NCBI GenBank assembly: GCA_944393205.1
Contig: CALXZI010000001.1
Span: 5,725 to 69,724 of the forward strand
DNA length: 64,000 bases
Direction of reading: 5' to 3'
Source of the DNA: an uncultured Alphaproteobacteria bacterium
GTDB lineage: Bacteria > Pseudomonadota > Alphaproteobacteria > RF32 > CAG-239
Made by a program: the position numbers and the translations under genes. Positions 17,731 through 29,585 of this stretch are shown one piece after another. The notes under the pieces were generated by a model. It was given only the letters and a program-made list of their open reading frames with translations, did not search any database and had not been told where the DNA came from. Every line of letters starts with the position of its first letter. Position 1 is the stretch's first letter.

Positions 17731-19061
17731 TATAATACCTCTCCGCTTAAAGAATTTGTCGTTGCGTCCGTAACCCGAACTTCAACAATTTTATTTAATA
17801 TATTTTCATCGGCTTTCGCATGCAGATTCTGCATATACGGCGTCCGACCGATAAGTTGTCCGTTGTGCCGTCCTTTTTGTTCAAACAGCACCTCAAAAGC
17901 CTTTCCGATGCAAGCCTCGTTAAATTTTGTTTGATAATCAAACAACAGCTTTTGCAAAATATCCAAACGCTCTTTTTTAACCTTTTCTTCCACCTGTGCC
18001 GGCATCACGGCCGCCGGCGTTCCCGGCCGACGACTATATTTAAAAGAAAAAGCTTGAATATATTTAACTTCATTGACCAAACTCAAGGTTTGTTCAAAAT
18101 CTGCATCCGTTTCCCCCGGAAAGCCGACAATAAAATCCGATGAAAAACGCAGCTTGTCATTAGCTTTTTGCAATTTTTCAATCACCTCAAGATATTGCCT
18201 GCGGTCATGGCGACGGTTCATCGCCTTCAAAATTTTATCCGAACCGGACTGCACCGGCAAATGCAAATACGGCATCAATGCCTGCAAATCCCGATGACAG
18301 GCGATTAAATCATCATCAACATCGGCTGGATAAGAGGTCGTATAGCGCAACCGTTTCAAACCATCCAATTCAGCTATTTTTTGCAAAAGATAGGCCAAAT
18401 TCCGTTCTTTGCCGGATTCGTCTTCTCCATGATATGAATTAACATTTTGCCCCAACAGATTGATTTCCAAGGTACCGGTCGCCAGCAAGCGCTTTGCTTC
18501 CGCCACCACTTCCGCCACCGGCCGTGAATATTCCGCACCGCGGGTATAAGGCACCACGCAATAAGTGCAAAAATTGTTGCAACCTTCCTGCACCGCCAAA
18601 AAAGAACATCCGCCCTCGGCGCGGTTTTCAGGCAAAAAATCAAACTTTGCTTCAGCCGGAAAATCCGTATCTATTAATGTTGTTCCCCGCTCACGGCTGA
18701 TTTTTGCCAACATCTCCGGCAAGCGATGATATGTCAACGGCCCGAGAGCAAAATCAACATACGGCGCCCGTTTGGCAATTTCTTCATCTTCGGCCTGCAC
18801 CACACAGCCGGCAACACCGATGATTGTATCCAACCCTTTTTCAGCACGCTCTTGCTTAATTAAATACGCGCGTCCCAAATCGGAAAAAACTTTTTCTGCG
18901 GCTTTTTCCCGAATATGACAGGTGTTAAACAACACCAAATCCGCTTCGGTCTGATTTTTTGCCGGCGTGTATCCAAAATTTTCCAACATAACCGCCATTC
19001 GGTGTGAATCATAAACATTCATCTGGCAGCCAAAAGTTTTGATAAAATATTTTTTAGACAT
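17730..19061 (-). CDS. miaB: tRNA-2-methylthio-N6-dimethylallyladenosine synthase
   Basis: MSKKYFIKTFGCQMNVYDS start, radical-SAM CxxxCxxC (CNNFCTYC), 443 aa. Confidence 0.9.
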   Translation of the reverse strand: MSKKYFIKTFGCQMNVYDSHRMAVMLENFGYTPAKNQTEADLVLFNTCHIREKAAEKVFSDLGRAYLIKQERAEKGLDTIIGVAGCVVQAEDEEIAKRAPYVDFALGPLTYHRLPEMLAKISRERGTTLIDTDFPAEAKFDFLPENRAEGGCSFLAVQEGCNNFCTYCVVPYTRGAEYSRPVAEVVAEAKRLLATGTLEINLLGQNVNSYHGEDESGKERNLAYLLQKIAELDGLKRLRYTTSYPADVDDDLIACHRDLQALMPYLHLPVQSGSDKILKAMNRRHDRRQYLEVIEKLQKANDKLRFSSDFIVGFPGETDADFEQTLSLVNEVKYIQAFSFKYSRRPGTPAAVMPAQVEEKVKKERLDILQKLLFDYQTKFNEACIGKAFEVLFEQKGRHNGQLIGRTPYMQNLHAKADENILNKIVEVRVTDATTNSLSGEVL

Positions 19062-19223
19062 GCTTCTTTCTTTTTAACTTCATTTAATTTTTTATTATGC
19101 TATGCCAATCCTTAATATTTTTCAAACACTTTTTTAATTTTGCCGGCAATATCAAAAACTCTCTTTTTCTATTGAAAAAAACATAAATTTCTTTATGATG
19201 TGAATATTAAAAGGAGAAAAGAT

Positions 19224-19661
19224 ATGACTTACACTGAAAGCCTTAAGAACAACAGTCATTTTCTAAATTTAAATGAAGAACAAAAAATTATCTTTCTAAA
19301 AGCATTGGCCTATATGGCAAAAATTGATGGCCGCCTTAATGAGGATGAAATTAAATACATTAAAGACATTGCCGCCGAGTACCAAATTTCCCAATCTACC
19401 GAAATTTTTGATTTTAAAGAGGAAGAATTTTTCAATCAGATAAAAAAACTTAACAACCGCCGCATTTGTCTTGAACTTATCAAAGAACTATGTTTTCTGG
19501 GTCATTCCGACAGCGATTTATCCGATGAAGAGGTTTTGTTTATCGGCAAAATCGGCGCTGCCATGAACATCGGGCTTGAAAAAATAGAACAAATCAGCAA
19601 CTGGGTCGTTGATAAAATCATCTGGGAAGAACAGGGAAAACTTATTTTTGAGGAAGCTTAA
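19224..19661 (+). CDS. TerB-like domain protein
   Basis: Start at MTYTESL with an AAGGAG RBS. Two TerB-like segments (LAYMAKIDGRLNEDEIKYIKDIA and LCFLGHSDSDLSDEEVLFIGKIGAAM). Confidence 0.4.
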   Translation: MTYTESLKNNSHFLNLNEEQKIIFLKALAYMAKIDGRLNEDEIKYIKDIAAEYQISQSTEIFDFKEEEFFNQIKKLNNRRICLELIKELCFLGHSDSDLSDEEVLFIGKIGAAMNIGLEKIEQISNWVVDKIIWEEQGKLIFEEA

Positions 19662-19681
19662 CCCGCCAACGGAGAAAATTT

Positions 19682-20698
19682 ATGGACACAAACGTAACAA
19701 ACACGGAAGAAACCGCTAAAAAGGAAAAAGAAGCCGACATCATTAAACGCGCATTGCTTTCTACATACAAGGATCTTAATGAAAAAGCCTTGCGTCGGAC
19801 TACAAGAGAAACTGTTTTTGCGCCGCAAGACCGTCAAATAAAAATAGGCGGTCGCAAAATTTCCGCCTCCGATTTACGTTACGAAGTTGCCGACACGATT
19901 GAAAAATTGGGTAATTCTAAAAATGTCTCGGAAATTCAGGAAAACGTTTCACACGCAGAAGATCTCCAATCTATGTTAGCGCAAAGCATGGAAAGCATCA
20001 ACAGCGAAACCTCGTCTTCCCAAGAATATTTTCGCTGGCTTGACGAAACAACCGATATCTTAAAAAACATGAATGACGGTTTTGTCACCGAGGAAGATTT
20101 GGAAAAAAGAAACGAATTTCTTGATTTCAGCCATCAGCGCGAAGCAGAACTTCTGGTTTGTTTAGGGCTCTATCAAAGCAGTAAAAACCCTGAAGCTCAA
20201 GAAAAAGCCAAACAAATTCGTTACAAACTGACCAAACTGCGCGAAATGCGCTCGGCCATTGAAAATCGCACCCGCAATCAAGCCGACAAAGAAGTGTCGC
20301 GCGCCGAATATGAGGCGGCAATTCCTTATTATAAATTATACCGCGGCTTGGCCAAGCTTCCTTTCGGCTATGATATTGCTTATCAAAAAAAAATCCAGTT
20401 AGGTATCAACCATGACGATGATGATGATTTAGATGAAGATTTTAATTATTATGATAATTTGCTCAATGTCATCCTTGACGGAATGGAAGAAGAAGATCGC
20501 GACTACATTTCGCGCGAATATCAGTTGGCACATGATATGGCGCGCCAACCAGAAACGCCTTCTCATTTTTCAACCAATGATACGCAAGAAATTGCTGATA
20601 AACTGCAAGAATTATCTGGACGTAAAAATACATTTCGTGTAAAGTATGATATTGTGAATGCCAAACTTAATGAAAAACTCAATGAACGTGAATATTAA
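19682..20698 (+). CDS. acidic hypothetical protein (338 aa)
   Basis: Long ORF 20 nt after the TerB-like gene. Coiled-coil/acidic composition with a D-rich stretch HDDDDDLDEDFNYYD. Confidence 0.45.
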   Translation: MDTNVTNTEETAKKEKEADIIKRALLSTYKDLNEKALRRTTRETVFAPQDRQIKIGGRKISASDLRYEVADTIEKLGNSKNVSEIQENVSHAEDLQSMLAQSMESINSETSSSQEYFRWLDETTDILKNMNDGFVTEEDLEKRNEFLDFSHQREAELLVCLGLYQSSKNPEAQEKAKQIRYKLTKLREMRSAIENRTRNQADKEVSRAEYEAAIPYYKLYRGLAKLPFGYDIAYQKKIQLGINHDDDDDLDEDFNYYDNLLNVILDGMEEEDRDYISREYQLAHDMARQPETPSHFSTNDTQEIADKLQELSGRKNTFRVKYDIVNAKLNEKLNEREY

Positions 20699-20718
20699 TT
20701 ACTATAAGGAGAAAAATT

Positions 20719-21018
20719 ATGGGTATGCTTTTGGTTCCTTTTTTTGACACACTGGCGCTGATTGTTGATATTTATTTCAAAATCGTCGTGGTTGAAATTG
20801 TGCTGTTCTGGTTGTTGCATTTCAAAATCATCACCATTACCAACAAATATGCGCAAAAATTTATGGATATTTTAAAGAAAGTTACCGAACCGGTATATAA
20901 AAAAGTTCGGGAAAAAATCCCGCCGTTTGCTGACTTTGACGCTTCACCGTTCATTGTTTTGCTCGTGTTGTTCTTTATTGCGCGTCTGATTTTTGTATTA
21001 AGGGAAATGGCCTTGTAA
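20719..21018 (+). CDS. yggT: YggT-family membrane protein
   Basis: 99 aa, two hydrophobic segments, followed by a YggU-like gene. Confidence 0.55.
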   Translation: MGMLLVPFFDTLALIVDIYFKIVVVEIVLFWLLHFKIITITNKYAQKFMDILKKVTEPVYKKVREKIPPFADFDASPFIVLLVLFFIARLIFVLREMAL

Positions 21019-21039
21019 GCAACCGGACACAAACAACTT

Positions 21040-21339
21040 ATGTTTTTTACGAAAAAGGATGATAGCTTTTTATTAAGAGTTAGGTTAACGCCTAACTCTT
21101 CTTGTTGTCGGACAAACGGCATTTTTTGCGATGAAAACAACGAGATGTACCTAAAGATAACTGTTCGCGCCGCACCGGAGAACGGCAAAGCCAATAAAGA
21201 GCTTATTGACTTTTTGGCCAAAACGCTTAACATATCCAAATCATGCATAACGCTTATCGGCGGTGCACAAAACCGGTTAAAAAAAATCCGTATTACTGAC
21301 ATTGAGGAAAACACGCTTTTAAAATTAACGAAAGAGTAA
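21040..21339 (+). CDS. yggU: YggU/DUF167-family protein
   Basis: LLRVRLTPNSS...LKITVRAAPENGKANKELIDFLAKTL matches the DUF167 signature. The start codon is uncertain. Confidence 0.55.
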   Translation: MFFTKKDDSFLLRVRLTPNSSCCRTNGIFCDENNEMYLKITVRAAPENGKANKELIDFLAKTLNISKSCITLIGGAQNRLKKIRITDIEENTLLKLTKE

Positions 21340-21341
21340 AT

Positions 21342-22196
21342 ATGAGTGCAAAAATTATTAACGGTAAAAAAATTGCCGAAGAGCTTCAAAACTTATTAAA
21401 AAAAGACGTTGCCGCACTTCCTTCCGCCATTGGTCTGGCCATTGTTCAAATCGGCGATGATGAAGCCAGCACCATATATGTTCGCAACAAGCTCAAAGCG
21501 GCTGCCGCTGTTGGCATAAATGCCGTTTTGCACAAATTTTCCGAAGACGTCTCTCAAACAAAAGTTTCTTCTTTAATAACCAAATTAAATGCTGACCCCG
21601 ATGTAAACGGCATTATCATTCAACTGCCGTTGCCTGCACATTTGGATGAAGAAACATTGCTTGAAAGCATCAAACCAGAAAAAGATGTTGACGGTTTTCA
21701 CCCCTTAAACATTGGACGTCTGCAAAACGGTTCTGATAAGGCTTTAATTGCAGCCACCCCAAAAGGCATTCTATACCTTCTGGAAAACTGCGGCATAGAT
21801 TTATGCGGCGGCAATGCTTTGATCATCGGTTGTTCAAAAATTGTCGGACGTCCTGCCGGCATGCTCTTGCTACAAAAAGGCTGTACGGTCACTTTGGCTC
21901 ACATTCACACTAAAAATTTGCCGGAACTCATTAAAAATGCGGATATCATCATTGCCGCTTGCGGCTGTCCGCAAACGGTCAAAGCCGAATGGGTCAAACA
22001 AGGCGCTGTTCTGATTGACGTCGGCATCAATCGTCTTAACGGCAAACTTTGCGGCGACATTGAACCCGCTGCTATCCAAAAGGCTTCGTTTATAACTCCT
22101 GTCCCCGGAGGTGTTGGCCCAATGACGGTGGCCATGCTTTTGCACAACACTTATGAGGCTTATTTAAAACAAAAGCAGGAAAAACCTACAAAATAA
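21342..22196 (+). CDS. folD: bifunctional methylenetetrahydrofolate dehydrogenase/cyclohydrolase
   Basis: 284 aa with conserved FolD features (IIGCSKIVGRPAG, PVPGGVGPMTVAML). Confidence 0.9.
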   Translation: MSAKIINGKKIAEELQNLLKKDVAALPSAIGLAIVQIGDDEASTIYVRNKLKAAAAVGINAVLHKFSEDVSQTKVSSLITKLNADPDVNGIIIQLPLPAHLDEETLLESIKPEKDVDGFHPLNIGRLQNGSDKALIAATPKGILYLLENCGIDLCGGNALIIGCSKIVGRPAGMLLLQKGCTVTLAHIHTKNLPELIKNADIIIAACGCPQTVKAEWVKQGAVLIDVGINRLNGKLCGDIEPAAIQKASFITPVPGGVGPMTVAMLLHNTYEAYLKQKQEKPTK

Positions 22197-22248
22197 TGCA
22201 TCAAATATTATATTTATCTCCGACGCAACACTCTGTTGGAGAAATACA

Positions 22249-22629
22249 ATGCCTGTTCTCGGTAAAATTTTTATCTTTGAAAATGTGCCCGAACATAACT
22301 CGGTAAAGGCTTTTTACAACGAGTTGGAAGCTTGGGGATTTTTAGTTTTCTGTACCGACAATCTGTATTGTTTTTTACAATATGCCGGTGAAATTAAACC
22401 GGATATTGTCATTTTGCATATACCGAATGACTTTCATCCCGACAAACAAACTTGGAAAATTGTTGAAGAAAGTTTATGCCGTAACAAATACCTGCAAATA
22501 TATGCCAACATACCATACAGATTTACGAACTATCCGAATTTTCATTACGTGAAATTCGGCACCGGTACCCTTAAAAAAGAGCAAATTTTAAGCATCATTA
22601 AAAAAAATCAAATAAAATATCTGCATTAA
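22249..22629 (+). CDS. degenerate receiver-like (pseudo-receiver) domain protein
   Basis: CheY-like layout, but the acidic pocket and phospho-acceptor positions are replaced (IFIFEN for ILIVDD; KPDIVILHIPND with His in place of Asp). Confidence 0.3.
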   Translation: MPVLGKIFIFENVPEHNSVKAFYNELEAWGFLVFCTDNLYCFLQYAGEIKPDIVILHIPNDFHPDKQTWKIVEESLCRNKYLQIYANIPYRFTNYPNFHYVKFGTGTLKKEQILSIIKKNQIKYLH

Positions 22630-22702
22630 ACAAATAAGATGTTGTCAAAATAAAATTTATACGCCATAAATTGATGGAGTTTAATTTTATCTGGGGAAAT
22701 CA

Positions 22703-23299
22703 ATGCACCGCATACACCGCCTTTTACATCAAATGTATGATTTGATGCTCAACCTTTCAGGCCACACCAATGCCATGTTCTTTTTGTTTTTGGTGGCTTT
22801 TGCTGAAAGTTCGTTTTTTCCGATTCCACCGGATGTTATGATTATTCCGATGGTCTTGGCCACACCAAATAAAGCTTGGCGGATTGCCGGTCTTGCAACT
22901 TTAGCAAGTGTTTTGGGCGGATATTTCGGCTATATCATCGGCGCTTTCTGTTTTGACTGGATTGCCAAGCCGATTTTAGAAATGTACAATGCTCTTGAGC
23001 AATTTCAAGAATTTGAAGACTACTACCACAAATTCGGCGCGTGGATTGTTTTTGCTGCCGGCTTAACCCCGTTTCCCTATAAAATCATCACTATTGCCAG
23101 CGGTGTTGTTCATTTGGATTTGTTTGTCTTTACCGTTGCCTCAATTTTGGCGCGCGGCATGCGGTTTTTCTTTGTAGCGTGGCTTCTGAAAAAATATGGC
23201 GAACCAATGAAAATTTTTATTGAAAAAAATTTAGGCTGGCTGTCCGTCTTGTTTTTAGTTCTTCTCATTGGTAGTTTTATGCTGATAAAATACATATAA
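22703..23299 (+). CDS. DedA/YqaA-family membrane protein
   Basis: 198 aa, multi-TM, with a YqaA-like C-terminal segment. Confidence 0.5.
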   Translation: MHRIHRLLHQMYDLMLNLSGHTNAMFFLFLVAFAESSFFPIPPDVMIIPMVLATPNKAWRIAGLATLASVLGGYFGYIIGAFCFDWIAKPILEMYNALEQFQEFEDYYHKFGAWIVFAAGLTPFPYKIITIASGVVHLDLFVFTVASILARGMRFFFVAWLLKKYGEPMKIFIEKNLGWLSVLFLVLLIGSFMLIKYI

Positions 23300-23327
23300 C
23301 ACAATTATATGTTGCTCTAAAAAAAAC

Positions 23328-23363
23328 CGCCTATAAATCGGCGGTTTTTTTATCACTTGCGAT
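23328..23363. terminator. bidirectional rho-independent terminator between the DedA-like and Cys-rich genes
   Basis: CCGCC-tataaat-cGGCGG hairpin flanked by an A7 run and a T8 run. Confidence 0.6.
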
Positions 23364-23367
23364 ATAA

Positions 23368-24207
23368 TTAATTTGCTGACTGACAATAAATATAACTGCT
23401 GTCAAACGGGCATTTCAAACCGGTGTTTTTCCCTTGGCAGTTTCCGGCTTTAACATAACCCAGCTGCTCACAATCGGTTATAATCGCTTTTGTGACATCA
23501 CACCAATACGCCGCCAGATTTACATCGTCTTTCTCGCTACAGGTTTCCGCGCCGCAATGATAACAGTTATCAACACCATTATACACTTCTTCCAGTAAAG
23601 TCGTACAACCATCTGTACGGGATGAACATTCAACCGTTGTCCAATTATCATCGCAAATACAAAACGGATACCACTTTTCACCGTCTGAATCTTCACAATA
23701 CTCTACACCGCTGGGTTCTTTCAAGCCGGTTTCCTTACAGTCATAAGGATAAACCGTTTTAGAGCAGCTGCATTTTTCATACCAAATAACACCATCGGCC
23801 GGACTACGGCAAGATCCGCCACTACCGGTAGCGCCCACATAATCAGCGCAACCTTCGTAAGGAAAACGAGAGGTATTGCATATAGTTTCCGAACCGGCGC
23901 ATCCGCATTCCGGATCCAAGACACCGTTGCAAACATACTTACCGCCTTCCATATTAAGAACCCGATCACTGGCGCAAGTACAGCGATAATATGTCTTGCC
24001 TTTATAAGTACATGTTTGTTCTTGATATCCTTCCTCACAAGGCGTCGTTCGGGTGTAACCTTCGCAACCGACCATCCAGCTGGAATTATCCAAACATCCG
24101 TCGCCATTTAAAATTCCGGGTAAAAAACAAACTTTGGCCTCCGCGCCAGATACTGATACAATCAGTGTTAAAACAAAAAACATCAGGATTTTTACCGGTG
24201 TTCGCAT
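23368..24207 (-). CDS. secreted cysteine-rich protein (~34 Cys in 279 aa)
   Basis: Signal peptide MRTPVKILMFFVLTLIVSVSGAEA. Dense CxC/CxxC spacing throughout, no recognisable family. Confidence 0.55.
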   Translation of the reverse strand: MRTPVKILMFFVLTLIVSVSGAEAKVCFLPGILNGDGCLDNSSWMVGCEGYTRTTPCEEGYQEQTCTYKGKTYYRCTCASDRVLNMEGGKYVCNGVLDPECGCAGSETICNTSRFPYEGCADYVGATGSGGSCRSPADGVIWYEKCSCSKTVYPYDCKETGLKEPSGVEYCEDSDGEKWYPFCICDDNWTTVECSSRTDGCTTLLEEVYNGVDNCYHCGAETCSEKDDVNLAAYWCDVTKAIITDCEQLGYVKAGNCQGKNTGLKCPFDSSYIYCQSAN

Positions 24208-24312
24208 AACTTAAGTCCTTAAACCTCAAAAATTTTACCTAAATAAAGCGTATAACATAAAAACAAGAGCGTCAAGATTTTTCATTGATATTCAAAGCTC
24301 TCATTAATCATG

Positions 24313-24840
24313 TTATCCGTATTTTTCTTTCAGTTGATAAATATAATCAATCACATCTTCTCTGTCCCATTTTGCACTACCTCGGATACGGCCGATTTCT
24401 TGACCGCTTTCATTAATCAAAACAGTGTGCGGACTGCTGAATATGCCAAAATCAGAGGCGACAATGCCACGTTCATCCACATAAAAATCAACATCCGTTG
24501 CACCATAACGTTTTAAAAAGCGTTTTTGTTCGGCAACAGATGACCATTCTTCGTTTGGTGATATCAACAATAATTTAACGCCATAATCTTTGGTCGCATT
24601 ATGAAAGCCGTTCAAGCTTTTAAGTTCGCCGATACACGGACCGCAATCACGCGACCAAAAAACCGCCAGCACAAAATCGCCTTTAAAATCCGATAAGCTG
24701 TAGCGCTGACCGCTTTCATGAATGATTGTATGTCTCGGCACTTCACGCGGTTCGGCATATATATTAACACCTTCTTCGGCAAAAACCGGAAACACAAACA
24801 AAAACACCGAAAAGATTGTTTGAATAATAAGTTTCAACAT
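24313..24840 (-). CDS. periplasmic thioredoxin-like thiol:disulfide oxidoreductase (TlpA/ResA-like)
   Basis: Signal peptide plus WSRDCGPCIGE (CxxC in thioredoxin-fold context), 175 aa. Confidence 0.7.
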   Translation of the reverse strand: MLKLIIQTIFSVFLFVFPVFAEEGVNIYAEPREVPRHTIIHESGQRYSLSDFKGDFVLAVFWSRDCGPCIGELKSLNGFHNATKDYGVKLLLISPNEEWSSVAEQKRFLKRYGATDVDFYVDERGIVASDFGIFSSPHTVLINESGQEIGRIRGSAKWDREDVIDYIYQLKEKYG

Positions 24841-24930
24841 AGCCTGTTAAAATCCTCAATTTTACTTTGTAATTTTCAATCATATTAAATATAATTATTA
24901 TCAATCTTAATACAATAAAAAGGTTAAAAA

Positions 24931-25065
24931 ATGAAATACATTTTCAAATTTTTTATTATCGCCGTCATTGTATTGACCATATGCGGGTTAGCAGCCTGCG
25001 GCAAAGTTTCTGACCCTGTGCCGCTTGAAGACAGCGGCTATCCGCACAGCTACCCGCGGCGTTAA
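24931..25065 (+). CDS. small lipoprotein (44 aa) immediately upstream of the vWA gene
   Basis: Hand-called ORF below the track threshold: MKYIFKFFIIAVIVLTICGLAACGKVSDPVPLEDSGYPHSYPRR. Lipobox LAAC, AAAGG RBS 8 nt upstream, stop 20 nt before the vWA start. Confidence 0.5.
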   Translation: MKYIFKFFIIAVIVLTICGLAACGKVSDPVPLEDSGYPHSYPRR

Positions 25066-25084
25066 AAATCAAAGGATGGTAAAA

Positions 25085-25771
25085 ATGGATGAACAGAAAA
25101 AAATTACCGATGAAACAATTCCTTATGTAGAATTTGCCGACAATGCAAACGAACGCACACCCTGTGTGTTGGTATTGGATTGTTCCGGTTCCATGCGCGG
25201 CGAACCGATAAAACAACTCAATGCCGGCTTAAGTGCTTTGGAAAAAGAATTAAAAGAAGATATTGATGCCAGCTCGCGCGTTCAACTCTTAATCATCAAA
25301 GCCTGTGGCAAAGATGAAGCCGTCATCAGTTCGGATTGGGTAGACGCCATGAACTTTACCGCACCGGTCATGGAAGCCGGTGGTTTGACACCTCTTGGTA
25401 AAGCCATGGAATTAGCTCTGCAAAAAATTGAAGAACAAAAATGTCTGTATGACAGCTGCGGTGTTACCTCCAAACGTCCGTGGATATTTTTAATCAGCGA
25501 TGGCGAACCGACGGATTACGGCTGGGAGCAAGCCGCCGAAAAATGCCGTTACGCCCAACAGAACAAAAAAGTAATTATTCATGCCGTCGGCACGCAAGGA
25601 GCCAATCTGGATAAATTAGCCAAATTTTCATTAATGTCGCCCAAACGCCTGACCGGCCTAAAATTTACCGAATTTTTCTTATGGTTAAGCCGTAGCGTTT
25701 CCTGCATTTCCAAAGCAGCACCCAACGCCGACGATTTACTTGAGGATATTGAAGACTGGAATGATGAATAA
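25085..25771 (+). CDS. von Willebrand factor A (TerY-like) protein
   Basis: MIDAS motif LDCSGSM, typical vWA length. Start at MDEQKK with an AAAGGATGG RBS. Confidence 0.75.
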   Translation: MDEQKKITDETIPYVEFADNANERTPCVLVLDCSGSMRGEPIKQLNAGLSALEKELKEDIDASSRVQLLIIKACGKDEAVISSDWVDAMNFTAPVMEAGGLTPLGKAMELALQKIEEQKCLYDSCGVTSKRPWIFLISDGEPTDYGWEQAAEKCRYAQQNKKVIIHAVGTQGANLDKLAKFSLMSPKRLTGLKFTEFFLWLSRSVSCISKAAPNADDLLEDIEDWNDE

Positions 25772-26510
25772 AAAACAAAATATGCACATTGTCGCCACCA
25801 GCGTGACCGGCCCGTACCATCGTGCCAAAAATTTGCCTTGTCAAGATTTTTATGCACATGCTTGCCGCGGTGATCGGTTGGTTGCTGTCGTGTCTGATGG
25901 AGCCGGTTCAGCCCGATACGGCAAAATTGGCGCCAAAACCGTATGCGATACCTTGTGCGATATTTTAATTTCAGGTTCCTTGCACAATGTGCGGCAAAAA
26001 GTAATTGATGCTTTGGAAGCGGCGCGGCAAAAACTGATATATCATCGTTTCAATAAATCTAAAAGTGAAAACGGGTTAATAGATTTTGCCGCCACGGTTG
26101 TCGGCACCGTATACACCAAAAAGGGCGGTTTGTTTTTTCATATCGGTGATGGCGCGGCCATTGCTTTAAATGATTCGCATCCGCATATTATTGTCTCTCG
26201 TCCCGAAAATGGTTTATTCTCATGCGAAACATATTTTTTTACCATGGACGATTGGAAAGACAGTTTGCGCTTTACTCCGTTTGATAAAGCAAATAGTCTG
26301 ATGCTAATGACTGACGGCGTTACCAGCTTTGCCTTTACCAAGGGATTTGACAATATTGAAAATGGTTTTGTTGAACCCATTAACCGTTTTTTGCATAGTG
26401 AAAGCAACCGCCGCAAAGCCGTTCGCGCGTTGAATAACACGCTTGATGCGCCACGTGCCTGTCATTTGAACCCTGATGACAAAACACTTTTATGGGTTGG
26501 CTTAAGATGA
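25761..26510 (+). CDS. PP2C-family Ser/Thr phosphatase
   Basis: PP2C-like motifs VVSDGAGSARYG, HIGDGAAIAL and LMTDGV. The start overlaps the vWA stop by 11 nt. Confidence 0.7.
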   Translation: MMNKKQNMHIVATSVTGPYHRAKNLPCQDFYAHACRGDRLVAVVSDGAGSARYGKIGAKTVCDTLCDILISGSLHNVRQKVIDALEAARQKLIYHRFNKSKSENGLIDFAATVVGTVYTKKGGLFFHIGDGAAIALNDSHPHIIVSRPENGLFSCETYFFTMDDWKDSLRFTPFDKANSLMLMTDGVTSFAFTKGFDNIENGFVEPINRFLHSESNRRKAVRALNNTLDAPRACHLNPDDKTLLWVGLR

Positions 26511-27967
26511 ACACACAAAATGCTATGACCGAACAAAATTTTTTATATTATAACGCCATATACGGTGACGGTCATTTTGAACGCGAAAAGCTGGGAGAAC
26601 TTTTAAACAAAGGCGGAGCCGCCGGTAAAATCTATCGCGACGTCAACCATCCGAAATTTGTTGCAAAAATTTTTCACGACCGCACCAAGAGCCATACCAA
26701 CCGCCAAAAATTAGAAGCAATGCTACACAATCGTCCCAACATTCCCCCGATTGAATACGATGGGAAAATGTATGTTCAGATTGCATGGCCGGAAGCCGTA
26801 TTGGAAGACGACGATGGTTTTTGTGTCGGTTATCTGATGCCGTTGATTAATATGGATGAAGCTGTTTCTTTAGACCATCTGATGCAAAAAGCTGTGCGCA
26901 AAAAACTCGGCCTTTCCGAAAGTTACAGCAATCGTTTATATGCGGCATACAATGTGGCTTCAATGGTGGCGGCATTGCACAAATGCGGGCATTACATTGT
27001 AGATTTAAAACCGGCAAACGTATCAGTTTACAAAGAAAATATGTTGGTGGCAATGTTTGATTGTGACGGCTTTTCCATCAAAGGTGAAAAAGGCCGTTAT
27101 CCGGCAGAATTTGTAAGCGAGGAATATATTTATCCCGAAGGTATGCGGCAAAATTGCGAAGATATGGGCGAAGAACAAGATAAATTTGCCTTGGCGGTAA
27201 TTATTTTCAAATTACTAAACAACGGCATCCACCCTTTTTCCGGCACACCGCGCAAAAACACCGAGATGCTTACCATTCAAACCCGCATAGAACAATATCA
27301 CTATGCCTATGGCCTGTGGCCAGATTCCTATCAGGCGCCCAACCCATACAGCATCCATCATTTCTTTGATAAAAAAACACTGGAACTGTTTGATCGGGCT
27401 TTTTTAAAAGGCCAAAAACGACCGGCAGCTAAAGAATGGCAAGCTCATCTGGAGTACCTTTTTCGCAATTTAAAAACCTGCAAACAAAATCCCGACCACA
27501 TTTACTTCACATCCAAAGGCTGTGGTTTATGTGCCATAGAAGAAAAATTTAAACAAAACATGGCCGCCGTCAAAGAAGAAAAAGCCATGCCGGTTAAAAT
27601 CCGTGGACTTGAAATCTCCGAACTTTCTACCGAAAAAAATGAACAGTTAAAACTGGAAAGACGTTTAAAATTCGTCAAACTTAATAAAGTTACATTAGCC
27701 GGCATAGTTTTTTATTTGTTTTTTTTCGGAAGCTTATCCTTTATTTTAAAACCGTTTCATAAACTTTTATCTTCCGGCGGATACGCTATACAACTGATTG
27801 TATGCGCCCTTGTCATCAAAGCTTTATATACGGCAGGAACATATTTGCAAAACAAATTACCCCTTTTGCAAAATCAAGCTTTGTTTAATATGCTCAAAAT
27901 TTATGCTTTAATTAATATCATCGTTGCTTTTATTATCTTAAATAATTTAACACTTTCCTCTTATTAA
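26507..27967 (+). CDS. Hanks-type Ser/Thr protein kinase with a C-terminal 3-TM anchor
   Basis: Gly loop GGAAGKIY, catalytic loop HYIVDLKPANV, DFG-like FDCDGF. Three C-terminal hydrophobic helices. ATGA start/stop overlap with the PP2C gene. Confidence 0.75.
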   Translation: MNTQNAMTEQNFLYYNAIYGDGHFEREKLGELLNKGGAAGKIYRDVNHPKFVAKIFHDRTKSHTNRQKLEAMLHNRPNIPPIEYDGKMYVQIAWPEAVLEDDDGFCVGYLMPLINMDEAVSLDHLMQKAVRKKLGLSESYSNRLYAAYNVASMVAALHKCGHYIVDLKPANVSVYKENMLVAMFDCDGFSIKGEKGRYPAEFVSEEYIYPEGMRQNCEDMGEEQDKFALAVIIFKLLNNGIHPFSGTPRKNTEMLTIQTRIEQYHYAYGLWPDSYQAPNPYSIHHFFDKKTLELFDRAFLKGQKRPAAKEWQAHLEYLFRNLKTCKQNPDHIYFTSKGCGLCAIEEKFKQNMAAVKEEKAMPVKIRGLEISELSTEKNEQLKLERRLKFVKLNKVTLAGIVFYLFFFGSLSFILKPFHKLLSSGGYAIQLIVCALVIKALYTAGTYLQNKLPLLQNQALFNMLKIYALINIIVAFIILNNLTLSSY

Positions 27968-28125
27968 AATTGACCAACAAATTTTTTAACATTTTTTTAC
28001 TCTAAAAAGCGCACAAACACGCTTTAGTATCCTCAAAGAAACTATCTGTCTTACAAGTGCCTACTTTTCTTTTTATAAAAAAGAGCATAAATAGATTTAA
28101 GTAAAATTTTTTTAAGGAAAAAGCA

Positions 28126-29514
28126 TTGAAAAACCTAAATCCAATTCTTTTATCAGGTAAAGAAGTTCTGCCTCTGATTGAAGGCGGCAAAGGCATCAAC
28201 GGCAGTAACGGTTACAGCTCGGGCGCTTGGGCTAAAGAAAACTGCGTCGGAACTTTTTCGGCTGTCAGTCCCGATGTTGTTGACAACAAAGGCAACGTGA
28301 TTATTGAAACATTTAAGAAAAAAATCCGTGCTGAACGCCACGAAGAAATGGTGCAATACGCCATTCAAGGTGGTATAGATCAGGCAAAAATTGCCCATGA
28401 AGTTTCTGGTGGAAATGGACGTATCCACATGAACATGCTTTGGGAAATGGCCGATTCCGAACGTATAATCGCTGCAATTTTGGAAAGAAGCAAAGGGCTC
28501 ATTCATGGTGTAACTTGCGGTGCCGGTCTGCCTTATCATTTAGGCGAACTTGCTTCAAAATTCAAAGTTTATTATTACCCGATTGTTTCTTCGGCTCGCG
28601 CGTTTCAGGTTTTATGGAAACGGGCTTATTCTAAATGTTCGGAATATTTAGGCGGTGTGGTTTATGAAGATCCATGGTTGGCCGGTGGTCATAACGGTCT
28701 ATCCAATGCCGAAAATCCTATGCTCCCGCAAGCGCCCTACAACCGTTTGGTTGAGTTACGCAAACTTTTGCGCGAGCTGGGACTTGAAAAAACACCAATC
28801 ATTATTGCCGGAGGTGTCTGGAAATTAAGCGACTGGCAAGATTATATTGATAATCCCGAATTAGGCGACGTTGCATTCCAGTTCGGCACCCGTCCGATGA
28901 TAACCAAAGAAAGCCCGATAAGCGATGCATGGAAAAATGTAATGATGCATGTCAAAAAAGGCGATGTAATTTTACAAAAATTCAGCCCAACCGGCTTTTT
29001 CTCATCAGCCATAAAAAACACCTTTTTAGAAAAACTGATTGAACGTAAAAAAGGTGAAATCTCTTTCAAAAACGAACCGGATGCCGAATATTCACACGCA
29101 TTACAAATGAACGCACACCGTATGGTTTATATCAAGCCGGAAGATGCTGATAAAGCGCAAAATCAAATTAACGCCGGTTTAAGCGTCATTCAAGAAACCC
29201 CTGATCAAACAGTTGTATTTATGAGCGAAGAAGACTGGAAAAAGATGAAACAAGACCGCGCTGAATGTGTCGGTTGCTTATCACAATGTCAGTTTTCAAC
29301 ATGGTCACGCGCAAACGGCACCACCGGCAAACTGCCGGATCCGCGTACCTATTGTATTCATAAGACCCTTTATGAAGTCGGCCATGGCGGCAGCGTTAAA
29401 GACCACTTGTTGTTTGCCGGTCATCAGGTTTATCGTTTTGCCACTGACCCATTGTACCGCAACGGTATTCCGACGGTAAAAGAATTGATTGAAAAAATCA
29501 AAGTCGGTGAATAA
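28126..29514 (+). CDS. nitronate monooxygenase/FabK-like FMN-dependent oxidoreductase with a C-terminal extension
   Basis: TIM-barrel NMO-like motifs (GVTCGAGLPYHLGE, IIAGGVWKLSDW). TTG start with an AAGGAAAAAG RBS. Extra ~100 aa C-terminal with CVGCLSQC. Confidence 0.4.
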   Translation: MKNLNPILLSGKEVLPLIEGGKGINGSNGYSSGAWAKENCVGTFSAVSPDVVDNKGNVIIETFKKKIRAERHEEMVQYAIQGGIDQAKIAHEVSGGNGRIHMNMLWEMADSERIIAAILERSKGLIHGVTCGAGLPYHLGELASKFKVYYYPIVSSARAFQVLWKRAYSKCSEYLGGVVYEDPWLAGGHNGLSNAENPMLPQAPYNRLVELRKLLRELGLEKTPIIIAGGVWKLSDWQDYIDNPELGDVAFQFGTRPMITKESPISDAWKNVMMHVKKGDVILQKFSPTGFFSSAIKNTFLEKLIERKKGEISFKNEPDAEYSHALQMNAHRMVYIKPEDADKAQNQINAGLSVIQETPDQTVVFMSEEDWKKMKQDRAECVGCLSQCQFSTWSRANGTTGKLPDPRTYCIHKTLYEVGHGGSVKDHLLFAGHQVYRFATDPLYRNGIPTVKELIEKIKVGE

Positions 29515-29525
29515 ATAAACCAAAA

Positions 29526-29560
29526 CTAAAGCCCCCGCCCTTAACAGAGCGGGGGCTTTC
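29526..29560. terminator. hairpin between the convergent NMO-like gene and trpS
   Basis: GCCCCCGC-cttaacaga-GCGGGGGC stem; the flanking A/T runs are short. Confidence 0.45.
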
Positions 29561-29585
29561 ATTGCCAACACTTTCAAAATAGAAA

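Follow-up and report, generated by a model that had tools for sequence, protein, structure and literature searches.

We describe a conserved four-gene block in a 64,000-nucleotide stretch of DNA from an uncultured Alphaproteobacteria bacterium (assembly GCA_944393205.1, contig CALXZI010000001.1, positions 5,725 to 69,724), the whole of which is called the window below. Four head-to-tail open reading frames (ORFs) on the + strand at 24931-27967 encode a predicted 44-residue lipoprotein precursor, a von Willebrand factor A (vWA) protein, a PP2C phosphatase and a Hanks-type kinase. The last three very probably constitute a triad of the TerY-P/YegL-PphC-YegI type, and we think it probable that the block is a housekeeping phospho-switch operon in which the lipopeptide is a co-expressed component. 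The triad itself is already known; the novelty lies in the lipopeptide gene that heads the operon and in the core-genome status of the block. The features of the locus are as follows.

24931..25065, + strand: small lipoprotein precursor gene, 44 residues, with a predicted signal peptide at 24931-24996, Cys23 at 24997-24999 and a mature 22-residue peptide at 24997-25062
25085..25771, + strand: TerY/YegL-like vWA gene, 228 residues, identified by Pfam VWA and its metal-ion-dependent adhesion site (MIDAS)
25761..26510, + strand: PP2C-type Ser/Thr phosphatase gene, 249 residues, identified by Pfam PP2C_2
26507..27967, + strand: Hanks-type Ser/Thr kinase gene, 486 residues, identified by Pfam Pkinase
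about 26543-27466, + strand: kinase domain
27479-27532, + strand: zinc-ribbon motif C325-x5-H331-x7-C339-x2-C342, which aligns with the YegI motif
27689-27949, + strand: three predicted hydrophobic helices, with segments centred near residues 405, 432 and 471
24867..24895, + strand: promoter-like site TTGTAA-17 nucleotides-TATAAT, a consensus match only, about 36 nucleotides 5' of the small ORF
24313..24840, - strand: gene for a secreted thioredoxin-fold redoxin (AhpC/TSA-Redoxin family, CGPC motif), identified by Pfam and divergent to the small ORF

The triad is assigned on the basis of homology to YegL, PphC and YegI of E. coli and to the TerY proteins of ter plasmids. The vWA protein matches Pfam VWA at 29.6 bits against a cut-off of 23.8, in agreement with a preliminary description of this DNA that had recognized a MIDAS vWA protein from its DCSGSM motif. 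The MIDAS is complete, with D32-C-S-G-S36 (DxSxS at 25178-25192), GxTPxG and SDGxPTD, and the protein is without a hydrophobic segment. Its identity to E. coli YegL is 41% over 211 residues (E 2e-50), and that to three TerY paralogues of ter plasmids is 29-31% over >80% of the length. The phosphatase gives a full-length PP2C_2 match (126.6 bits, E 1.3e-36), is 26% identical to E. coli PphC/YegK (E 3e-16) and is predicted to be soluble, being likewise without a hydrophobic segment. The kinase matches Pfam Pkinase at 38.6 bits (cut-off 31.7), carries a GxGxxG-like loop, VAK, D-L-K-P-x-N and D-C-D-G-F, and aligns with E. coli YegI at 28% identity (E 2e-28) over 336 residues that include the C..H..C..C motif. 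The profile searches for vWA, PP2C and Pkinase suggested in the preliminary description were thus all significant, and its proposal of a TerY-P triad is supported by the YegL/PphC/YegI and ter-plasmid TerY homologies. A search of PDB sequences returned one weak match for the vWA protein (8s05, E 0.0013) and none for the phosphatase or the kinase.

The TerY-P triad was reportedly described by Anantharaman, Iyer and Aravind in 2012. PMC11090510 defines it by three components, namely a TerY-like vWA protein, a PP2C phosphatase and a Ser/Thr kinase that bears a zinc ribbon at its C-terminus, and it has been proposed to be a metal-sensing phosphorylation switch (PMC11090510; PMC4978471). Each element of this definition that can be read from sequence is found in the window: a vWA protein with a MIDAS, an adjoining PP2C gene, an intact kinase and a predicted C-terminal zinc ribbon. 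The E. coli proteins have been characterized biochemically: YegI is an inner-membrane protein that spans the membrane with two helices, lacks a periplasmic sensor domain and autophosphorylates, and PphC removes the phosphate from it (bioRxiv 10.1101/819920, 10.1101/303594). The E. coli yegL-pphC-yegI genes are accessory and poorly expressed (PMC13232886).

A search for relatives of the kinase gave 277 species-level genomes, of which the best 80 loci were analysed; DNA upstream of the vWA gene was available for 76 species, to which the 76-species counts below refer. The exact proteins of the window occur on human-gut metagenome contigs, and kinase relatives of 61-89% identity belong to uncultured Alphaproteobacteria of human, ruminant, rabbit and chicken guts, Candidatus Scatocola and CAG:495 among them. 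Across the best 80 of the 277, the gene order is constant: the redoxin gene on the - strand is followed by the small ORF, vWA, PP2C and kinase genes on the + strand, and usually by an NMO-like gene. The DNA outside the block varies by species, and the G+C content of the block, 0.40-0.42, equals that of its flanks. The conserved synteny across the clade and the equal G+C content indicate that the block is a core gene set that is vertically inherited in this clade. The MIDAS motifs (DxSxS, T, D) of the vWA protein and the metal-binding motifs DGAGS, GDG, TDG and DDKT of the phosphatase are retained in all 76 species. The vWA protein is 80-98% identical across the species, with a median of 87% to that of the window, compared with medians of 78% for the NMO-like protein, 64% for the kinase, 56% for the phosphatase and 53% for the redoxin; by this measure no other gene of the neighbourhood is as constrained. 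The ranking repeats against E. coli (41% for the vWA protein versus 28% for the kinase and 26% for the phosphatase), which is unusual for a protein of unassigned role.

The kinase was examined with an AlphaFold2 model built from 86 sequences (mean predicted local distance difference test score, pLDDT, of 89). In the model, residues 13-320 adopt a kinase fold and the Cys/His motif has short strands; the linker after it is poorly ordered, and the hydrophobic region is modelled as helices with confidence. K54, D166-L-K-P-x-N171, D185-C-D-G-F and the four zinc-ribbon residues are invariant in the 86 sequences, and a zinc ribbon is predicted to follow the kinase domain. Foldseek returned only generic kinase domains for the model, with PDK1, PknB and CaMKII at the top. 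The preliminary description had pointed out a C-terminal three-helix membrane anchor in this copy. Three helices are indeed predicted; however, membrane anchoring is normal for the family, since YegI is an inner-membrane protein and 128 of the 149 nearest relatives outside the clade carry at least one hydrophobic segment right after the zinc-ribbon module. In an exhaustive search, 623 cluster representatives matched the kinase at E < 1e-30. The entire clade falls into one 50% cluster, and the next relatives, at most 47% identical, align only over approximately residues 20-350, corresponding to the kinase plus zinc ribbon. In one triad from outside the clade (locus L164, 1617-4766), the kinase has 1049 residues, with a single hydrophobic segment after the zinc ribbon and a large C-terminal region, which illustrates how variable the part beyond the zinc ribbon is in the family.

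The small ORF at the head of the block encodes MKYIFKFFIIAVIVLTICGLAAC (signal peptide) followed by GKVSDPVPLEDSGYPHSYPRR (mature part), with the lipobox LAAC; the tryptic peptide of the product would be VSDPVPLEDSGYPHSYPR. The sequence AAAGG lies 9-13 nucleotides ahead of the ATG, and a Shine-Dalgarno-like AAGG or AGGA is found 5' of the ORF in 69/76 species. The ORF itself is found at all 76 species loci having DNA 5' of the vWA gene, where it ends 4-28 nucleotides from the vWA start. The 44-residue ORF with lipobox and ribosome-binding site that had been proposed at 24931-25065 is therefore confirmed, and the check for its conservation upstream of homologous triads finds it in every related genome with upstream DNA. 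In the 76 species, a lipobox-type tripeptide and the Cys are invariably present, LSA-C being the commonest form. The signal region of 18-33 residues varies in sequence but keeps a basic N-terminus and a hydrophobic character throughout the set, and the part from Cys to stop is exactly 22 residues long in 76/76, with the consensus C-G-K-[MVI]-S-x-P-x-P-[IYLV]-E-G-S-G-Y-P-H-[TS]-Y-P-[RK]-x.

Compared in pairs, sequences of the small ORF differ by 0.25, 0.20 and 0.57 at codon positions 1, 2 and 3, the dN/dS ratio is ~0.17 (Nei-Gojobori), and the remaining five frames are interrupted by stops in most species. The concentration of variation at third positions, the low dN/dS and the mostly closed alternative frames argue that the small ORF is a real protein-coding gene. 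Its product has the charged N-terminus, hydrophobic core and lipobox ([LVI][ASTVI][GAS]C) of a lipoprotein, and we predict that, after export and lipidation at Cys23, it stays anchored to a membrane on the periplasmic side; this is the weakest step of our interpretation. The claim that the gene was hidden holds only for the contigs bearing the exact locus, on which it is uncalled. Elsewhere, the identical peptide (P0123) and >100 homologues of 40-50 residues have already been called as 'hypothetical protein' in public assemblies, one of them in an NCBI-annotated genome, and the called homologues directly precede the vWA gene.

No curated family matches the small protein above its cut-off, and the sub-threshold matches fall on the signal-peptide portions of many unrelated lipoprotein models. 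One family member matches Pfam SafA at chance level (E 0.055). Identity with LptM (YifL) was considered and rejected: the NCBIfam model scores 16.4 bits against a cut-off of 27.7 and covers model positions 1-21 only. Sub-threshold NCBIfam LptM matches are given by 25 of 32 family members, Pfam LptM_cons reaches a best E of 0.026, below cut-off, and the hhalign alignment with E. coli LptM is restricted to the signal peptide and Cys-Gly. Both are small proteobacterial lipoproteins with a mature part beginning Cys-Gly, but the mature motifs differ. E. coli LptM has the mature start CGLKGPLYFPP, unlike the CGK.S.P.P.EGSGYPH.YP of the small lipoprotein.

The four genes of the block are closely packed. 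The gap between the stop of the small ORF and the vWA start is 19 nucleotides, rather than the 20 first given. The vWA and PP2C genes overlap by 11 nucleotides and the PP2C/kinase junction is ATGA, with a second in-frame kinase ATG at 26492; both junctions had been correctly placed in the preliminary description. Across the 76 species, the vWA/PP2C overlap is always present, at 8-20 nucleotides, and the PP2C and kinase genes overlap or are no more than 7 nucleotides apart, except in three species, where 11-12 nucleotides separate them. The recurrence of the overlaps, the motifs and the small ORF in 76 species-level genomes is beyond chance. The TTGTAA-17-TATAAT site is the top sigma-70-like match within 24200-28300, agreeing at 10/12 positions. 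A TTG -35 with a TATAAT-like -10 (at least 9/12) is found 5' of the small ORF in 23 of the 76 species, compared with 6.7 +/- 2.9 in shuffles, and most of these pairs lie 35-41 nucleotides from the small-ORF ATG. We consider the site at 24867-24895 likely to be the start of a four-gene transcript. The coding signal, the Shine-Dalgarno-like motif and the promoter-like pair upstream together indicate that the predicted four-gene unit begins with the small ORF as its first cistron. A terminator scan detected no terminator-like site on the + strand within the operon or after it.

The very short gap to the vWA start also allows the small ORF to be viewed as a cis-acting leader or upstream ORF that controls vWA translation, perhaps by Pro/Tyr-rich stalling, with the peptide itself functionless. 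The layout resembles that of regulatory leader peptides, of which SecM, TnaC and MifM are examples, and conservation of the small ORF peaks over its last 10 codons, up to the stop. However, the invariant lipobox and the sequence-variable yet hydrophobic signal peptide fit selection for export and lipidation and would be superfluous in a leader. In a chain of 44 residues, moreover, the signal peptide would not be able to reach the secretion machinery before the C-terminus has left the ribosome, and a C-terminal Pro occurs in 0/76 sequences. An Rfam scan of the whole window found no RNA family, so a known riboswitch or leader is absent before the operon. A purely cis-acting role is, in our estimation, very unlikely.

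Outside the clade, the triad occurs without the small gene. Neither the small ORF nor its YPH.YP motif is present upstream of the vWA gene in five outside triads, those of E. coli, of L170, L171 and L172, and of an Azospirillum plasmid (L174), which suggests that the lipopeptide is a clade-specific addition. In the nearest relatives, L170, L171 and L172, just 56-89 nucleotides precede the vWA gene. When metagenomes were scanned with aligned kinases from outside the clade, 78 of 80 loci again belonged to the same clade; the two outside loci were uninformative, as L139 is too short and L164 has ~130 nucleotides upstream of the vWA gene. The redoxin, likewise, is not present next to the outside-clade triads. 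Within the clade it matches Pfam Redoxin (E 2.9e-14) and AhpC-TSA (E 7.6e-14), and it adjoins the small ORF divergently in 74/74 species loci with enough upstream DNA, as well as in further metagenome loci.

This arrangement raises the alternative that the small lipoprotein acts on its own in the envelope, either as a partner or substrate handler of the redoxin or as a biogenesis lipoprotein, and shares a transcript with a triad to which it is functionally unrelated. By the 74/74 count, the redoxin is as tightly tied to the small ORF as the triad is. The lipoprotein and redoxin are both predicted to be extracytoplasmic, the vWA protein and the phosphatase cytoplasmic, and triads elsewhere do without the peptide. 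The weak LptM-model matches would also suit a lipoprotein of envelope biogenesis; these, however, stay below cut-off and involve only the signal peptide and Cys-Gly. Moreover, the small ORF lies on the strand of the triad, next to the vWA gene in all 76 species and with the promoter-like site 5' of it, and the lipidated Cys is the sole Cys of the mature peptide, which is thus not an obvious thiol-redox client. We regard full independence of the lipoprotein from the triad as unlikely.

We favour, as probable, the housekeeping phospho-switch operon with the lipopeptide as a co-expressed component. By analogy with the E. coli homologues, the C-terminal helices would anchor the kinase in the inner membrane and leave its catalytic domain and zinc ribbon on the cytoplasmic side; the kinase would autophosphorylate, and the phosphatase would strip the phosphate and reset the switch. 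The TerY-P literature and the conservation of the vWA protein suggest that this protein would be the output or adaptor, its MIDAS binding a partner in a metal- and phosphorylation-dependent manner. The lipopeptide, if exported and lipidated as predicted, would be tethered on the periplasmic side, where it would modulate or localize the membrane module of the kinase, possibly together with the periplasmic redoxin. An envelope cue would in this way be coupled to the cytoplasmic switch. Because the kinase is without an extracytoplasmic sensor domain, the lipopeptide would be the only periplasmic component of the operon, and it is for this reason that we propose it as a partner of the kinase membrane module. 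A direct regulatory contact between lipopeptide and kinase is nevertheless a tentative suggestion, one that the gene arrangement makes conceivable and that we hold to be rather unlikely. The same doubt attaches to the broader idea of a dedicated periplasmic partner that gates a YegI-like kinase by way of its three-helix membrane module, in a core envelope-to-cytoplasm device of this gut alphaproteobacterial order.

Several points weigh against the proposed mechanism. The link between peptide and kinase is one of gene arrangement alone, and transcription, translation and lipidation of the small gene are predictions from sequence only. Triads outside the clade function without the lipopeptide, which is consequently not a general component, and within the clade it could equally serve the divergent redoxin or an unrelated envelope role. 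The three-helix topology of the kinase is predicted and differs from the two-pass YegI. To our knowledge, substrates of a TerY-P kinase beyond the kinase itself, or phosphorylation of the vWA protein, have never been shown. The E. coli yegL-pphC-yegI genes, finally, have no known phenotype or inducing condition (PMC13232886).

The conservation data also bear on a defensive role, in which the locus would be a TerY-P-type anti-phage or conflict system whose phospho-switch fires on infection. The preliminary description had put the locus forward as a candidate envelope-associated phospho-signalling or conflict system; the conflict alternative is disfavoured by the synteny, by the G+C content and by the finding that no defence genes adjoin the block. 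TerY-P-like triads have been reported both as stand-alone defence and in Type II/III-A CoCoNuT restriction systems (PMC11090510), and the Azospirillum plasmid triad (L174) has genes for a GIY-YIG nuclease and a DNA methyltransferase around it. The block in the window, by comparison, is without a nuclease, helicase, McrBC or other effector, and its synteny in at least 76 species, high vWA identity and flank-like G+C mark a core set rather than a patchy island. The kinase gives weak PADLOC matches to PD-T4-6 kinases; these are generic similarity, however, and E. coli YegI gives identical ones. PADLOC produced no TerY-P match for the triad (none for the vWA protein, a chance-level one for the phosphatase), a result of little weight since the E. 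coli YegL/PphC/YegI control was equally negative and the PADLOC set may contain no TerY-P models. An anti-phage TerY-P variant attributed to Gao et al. 2020 has the identical three-gene composition, but its kinase is fused to an OB fold (PMC11090510). The window kinase has no C-terminal OB fold and instead ends in a linker helix and the three hydrophobic helices. An anti-phage function of this locus appears very unlikely.

A tellurite or metal (Ter) stress system would combine the triad with a TerB-like gene, which had been noted ~5 kb upstream. The gene is real in that ORF 19200-19661 matches Pfam TerB above cut-off (30.7 bits), and the vWA protein is homologous to the TerY of ter clusters. 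The TerB match, however, spans profile positions 64-111 only, and no TerZ/A/C/D/E-type gene is present among the ORFs of 19000-32500. Housekeeping genes (YggT, FolD) separate the TerB-like gene from the triad, and in one related locus (L020) the TerB-like gene, accompanied by MiaB/YggT/FolD, flanks the triad at its other end and is encoded on the opposite strand. The proximity in the window is thus not a linkage, and we consider membership of the triad in a Ter system highly improbable. The TerB-like ORF has 153 residues by a GTG start at 19200 and is called with 145 residues on the source contigs; it is followed by an acidic 338-residue ORF without a family, and the pair (19200-20698) travels with MiaB/YggT/FolD.

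Other genes lie close to the block. The NMO-like gene (462 residues, 28126-29514) scores 27.6 bits with Pfam NMO, just below the 28-bit cut-off. It follows the kinase by 158 nucleotides in most species and is missing or moved upstream in several (L040, L068), so that we regard it as a frequent neighbour outside the unit. Beyond the redoxin, at 23368-24207 on the - strand, a 279-residue Cys-rich secreted protein without a Pfam match is encoded. It is fast-evolving (29-67% identity), occurs only in part of the clade and might be a client of the adjoining periplasmic redoxin. Further downstream, a 501-residue ORF at 30749-32254 on the - strand has a Glu/Lys-rich C-terminal region, gives no PADLOC match and recurs in one related locus (L013); its 491-residue homologue on contig L001, from the same organism, has no Pfam match on record. 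Three tandem paralogous ORFs follow at 32359-32856, 32846-33376 and 33366-33896 (165, 176 and 176 residues), with near-identical C-terminal halves. L001 has two copies, and copy number therefore varies; the antisense ORFs at 32359-33896 look like artefacts.

TerY-P and YegL-PphC-YegI triads are widespread, and we know of no input signal, substrate or phenotype for any TerY-P triad. The core, strongly conserved triad described here suggests that at least one branch of the family serves a housekeeping function, and the vWA protein, being the most constrained, is the likely hub. On the input side, which is missing so far, the highly conserved and presumably co-transcribed lipopeptide, predicted to be periplasmic, offers a concrete candidate. 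If this were true, an input component would have been identified for a TerY-P triad for the first time, and the kinase would be the first of the eukaryotic-like type to be regulated by a lipopeptide. The small ORF is also a clean case of a real gene of 40-50 residues that gene callers treat inconsistently. The reach of these implications is limited by the uncultured state of the organisms, by the prior knowledge of the triad and by a peptide-kinase link that consists of gene arrangement only.

Small envelope modulators are familiar from histidine kinases, with MgrB and SafA acting on PhoQ, NlpE on CpxA and RcsF on Rcs. The window would offer a parallel, in that a tiny envelope-anchored protein is found with a membrane kinase without its own ligand-binding domain; the analogy is one of arrangement, as the targets of these modulators are histidine kinases and the lipopeptide has no sequence similarity to them. 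The ter-plasmid TerY proteins are homologous vWA/MIDAS proteins, and their Klebsiella copies adjoin a PP2C-family gene, but the window has one vWA copy rather than three, no TerY-C domain and, among the ORFs of 19000-32500, no TerD, TerZ, TerA, TerC or TerE gene. The Klebsiella pneumoniae plasmid NZ_CP095577.1 (L179, 4961-9786) has the classic order of ter plasmids, in which two vWA genes flank a TerD-family gene and a third vWA gene, with a TerY-C domain, is followed by a 582-residue PP2C-family gene and an abutting IS3000 transposase; a separate kinase gene is not annotated in that stretch.

The closest comparison is with E. coli B, in which the vWA, PP2C and kinase genes stand in the identical order and the proteins have the identities given above. 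YegI shares with the window kinase the membrane helices after the zinc ribbon and the lack of a periplasmic sensor domain. It differs in its length of 648 residues, its two transmembrane helices, an extra cytoplasmic C-terminal region and the absence of some canonical kinase motifs, whereas the 486-residue window kinase ends in three predicted hydrophobic helices and has a canonical D-L-K-P-x-N loop. Upstream of yegL, E. coli has sibA/ibsA rather than a lipoprotein gene. TerY-P triads described to date lie mostly within DNA/RNA-processing, restriction or secretion clusters and on mobile islands (PMC11090510; PMC4978471). The triad of the window, in contrast, stands alone in housekeeping surroundings, appears to be inherited vertically and is headed by an additional gene for a predicted lipopeptide.

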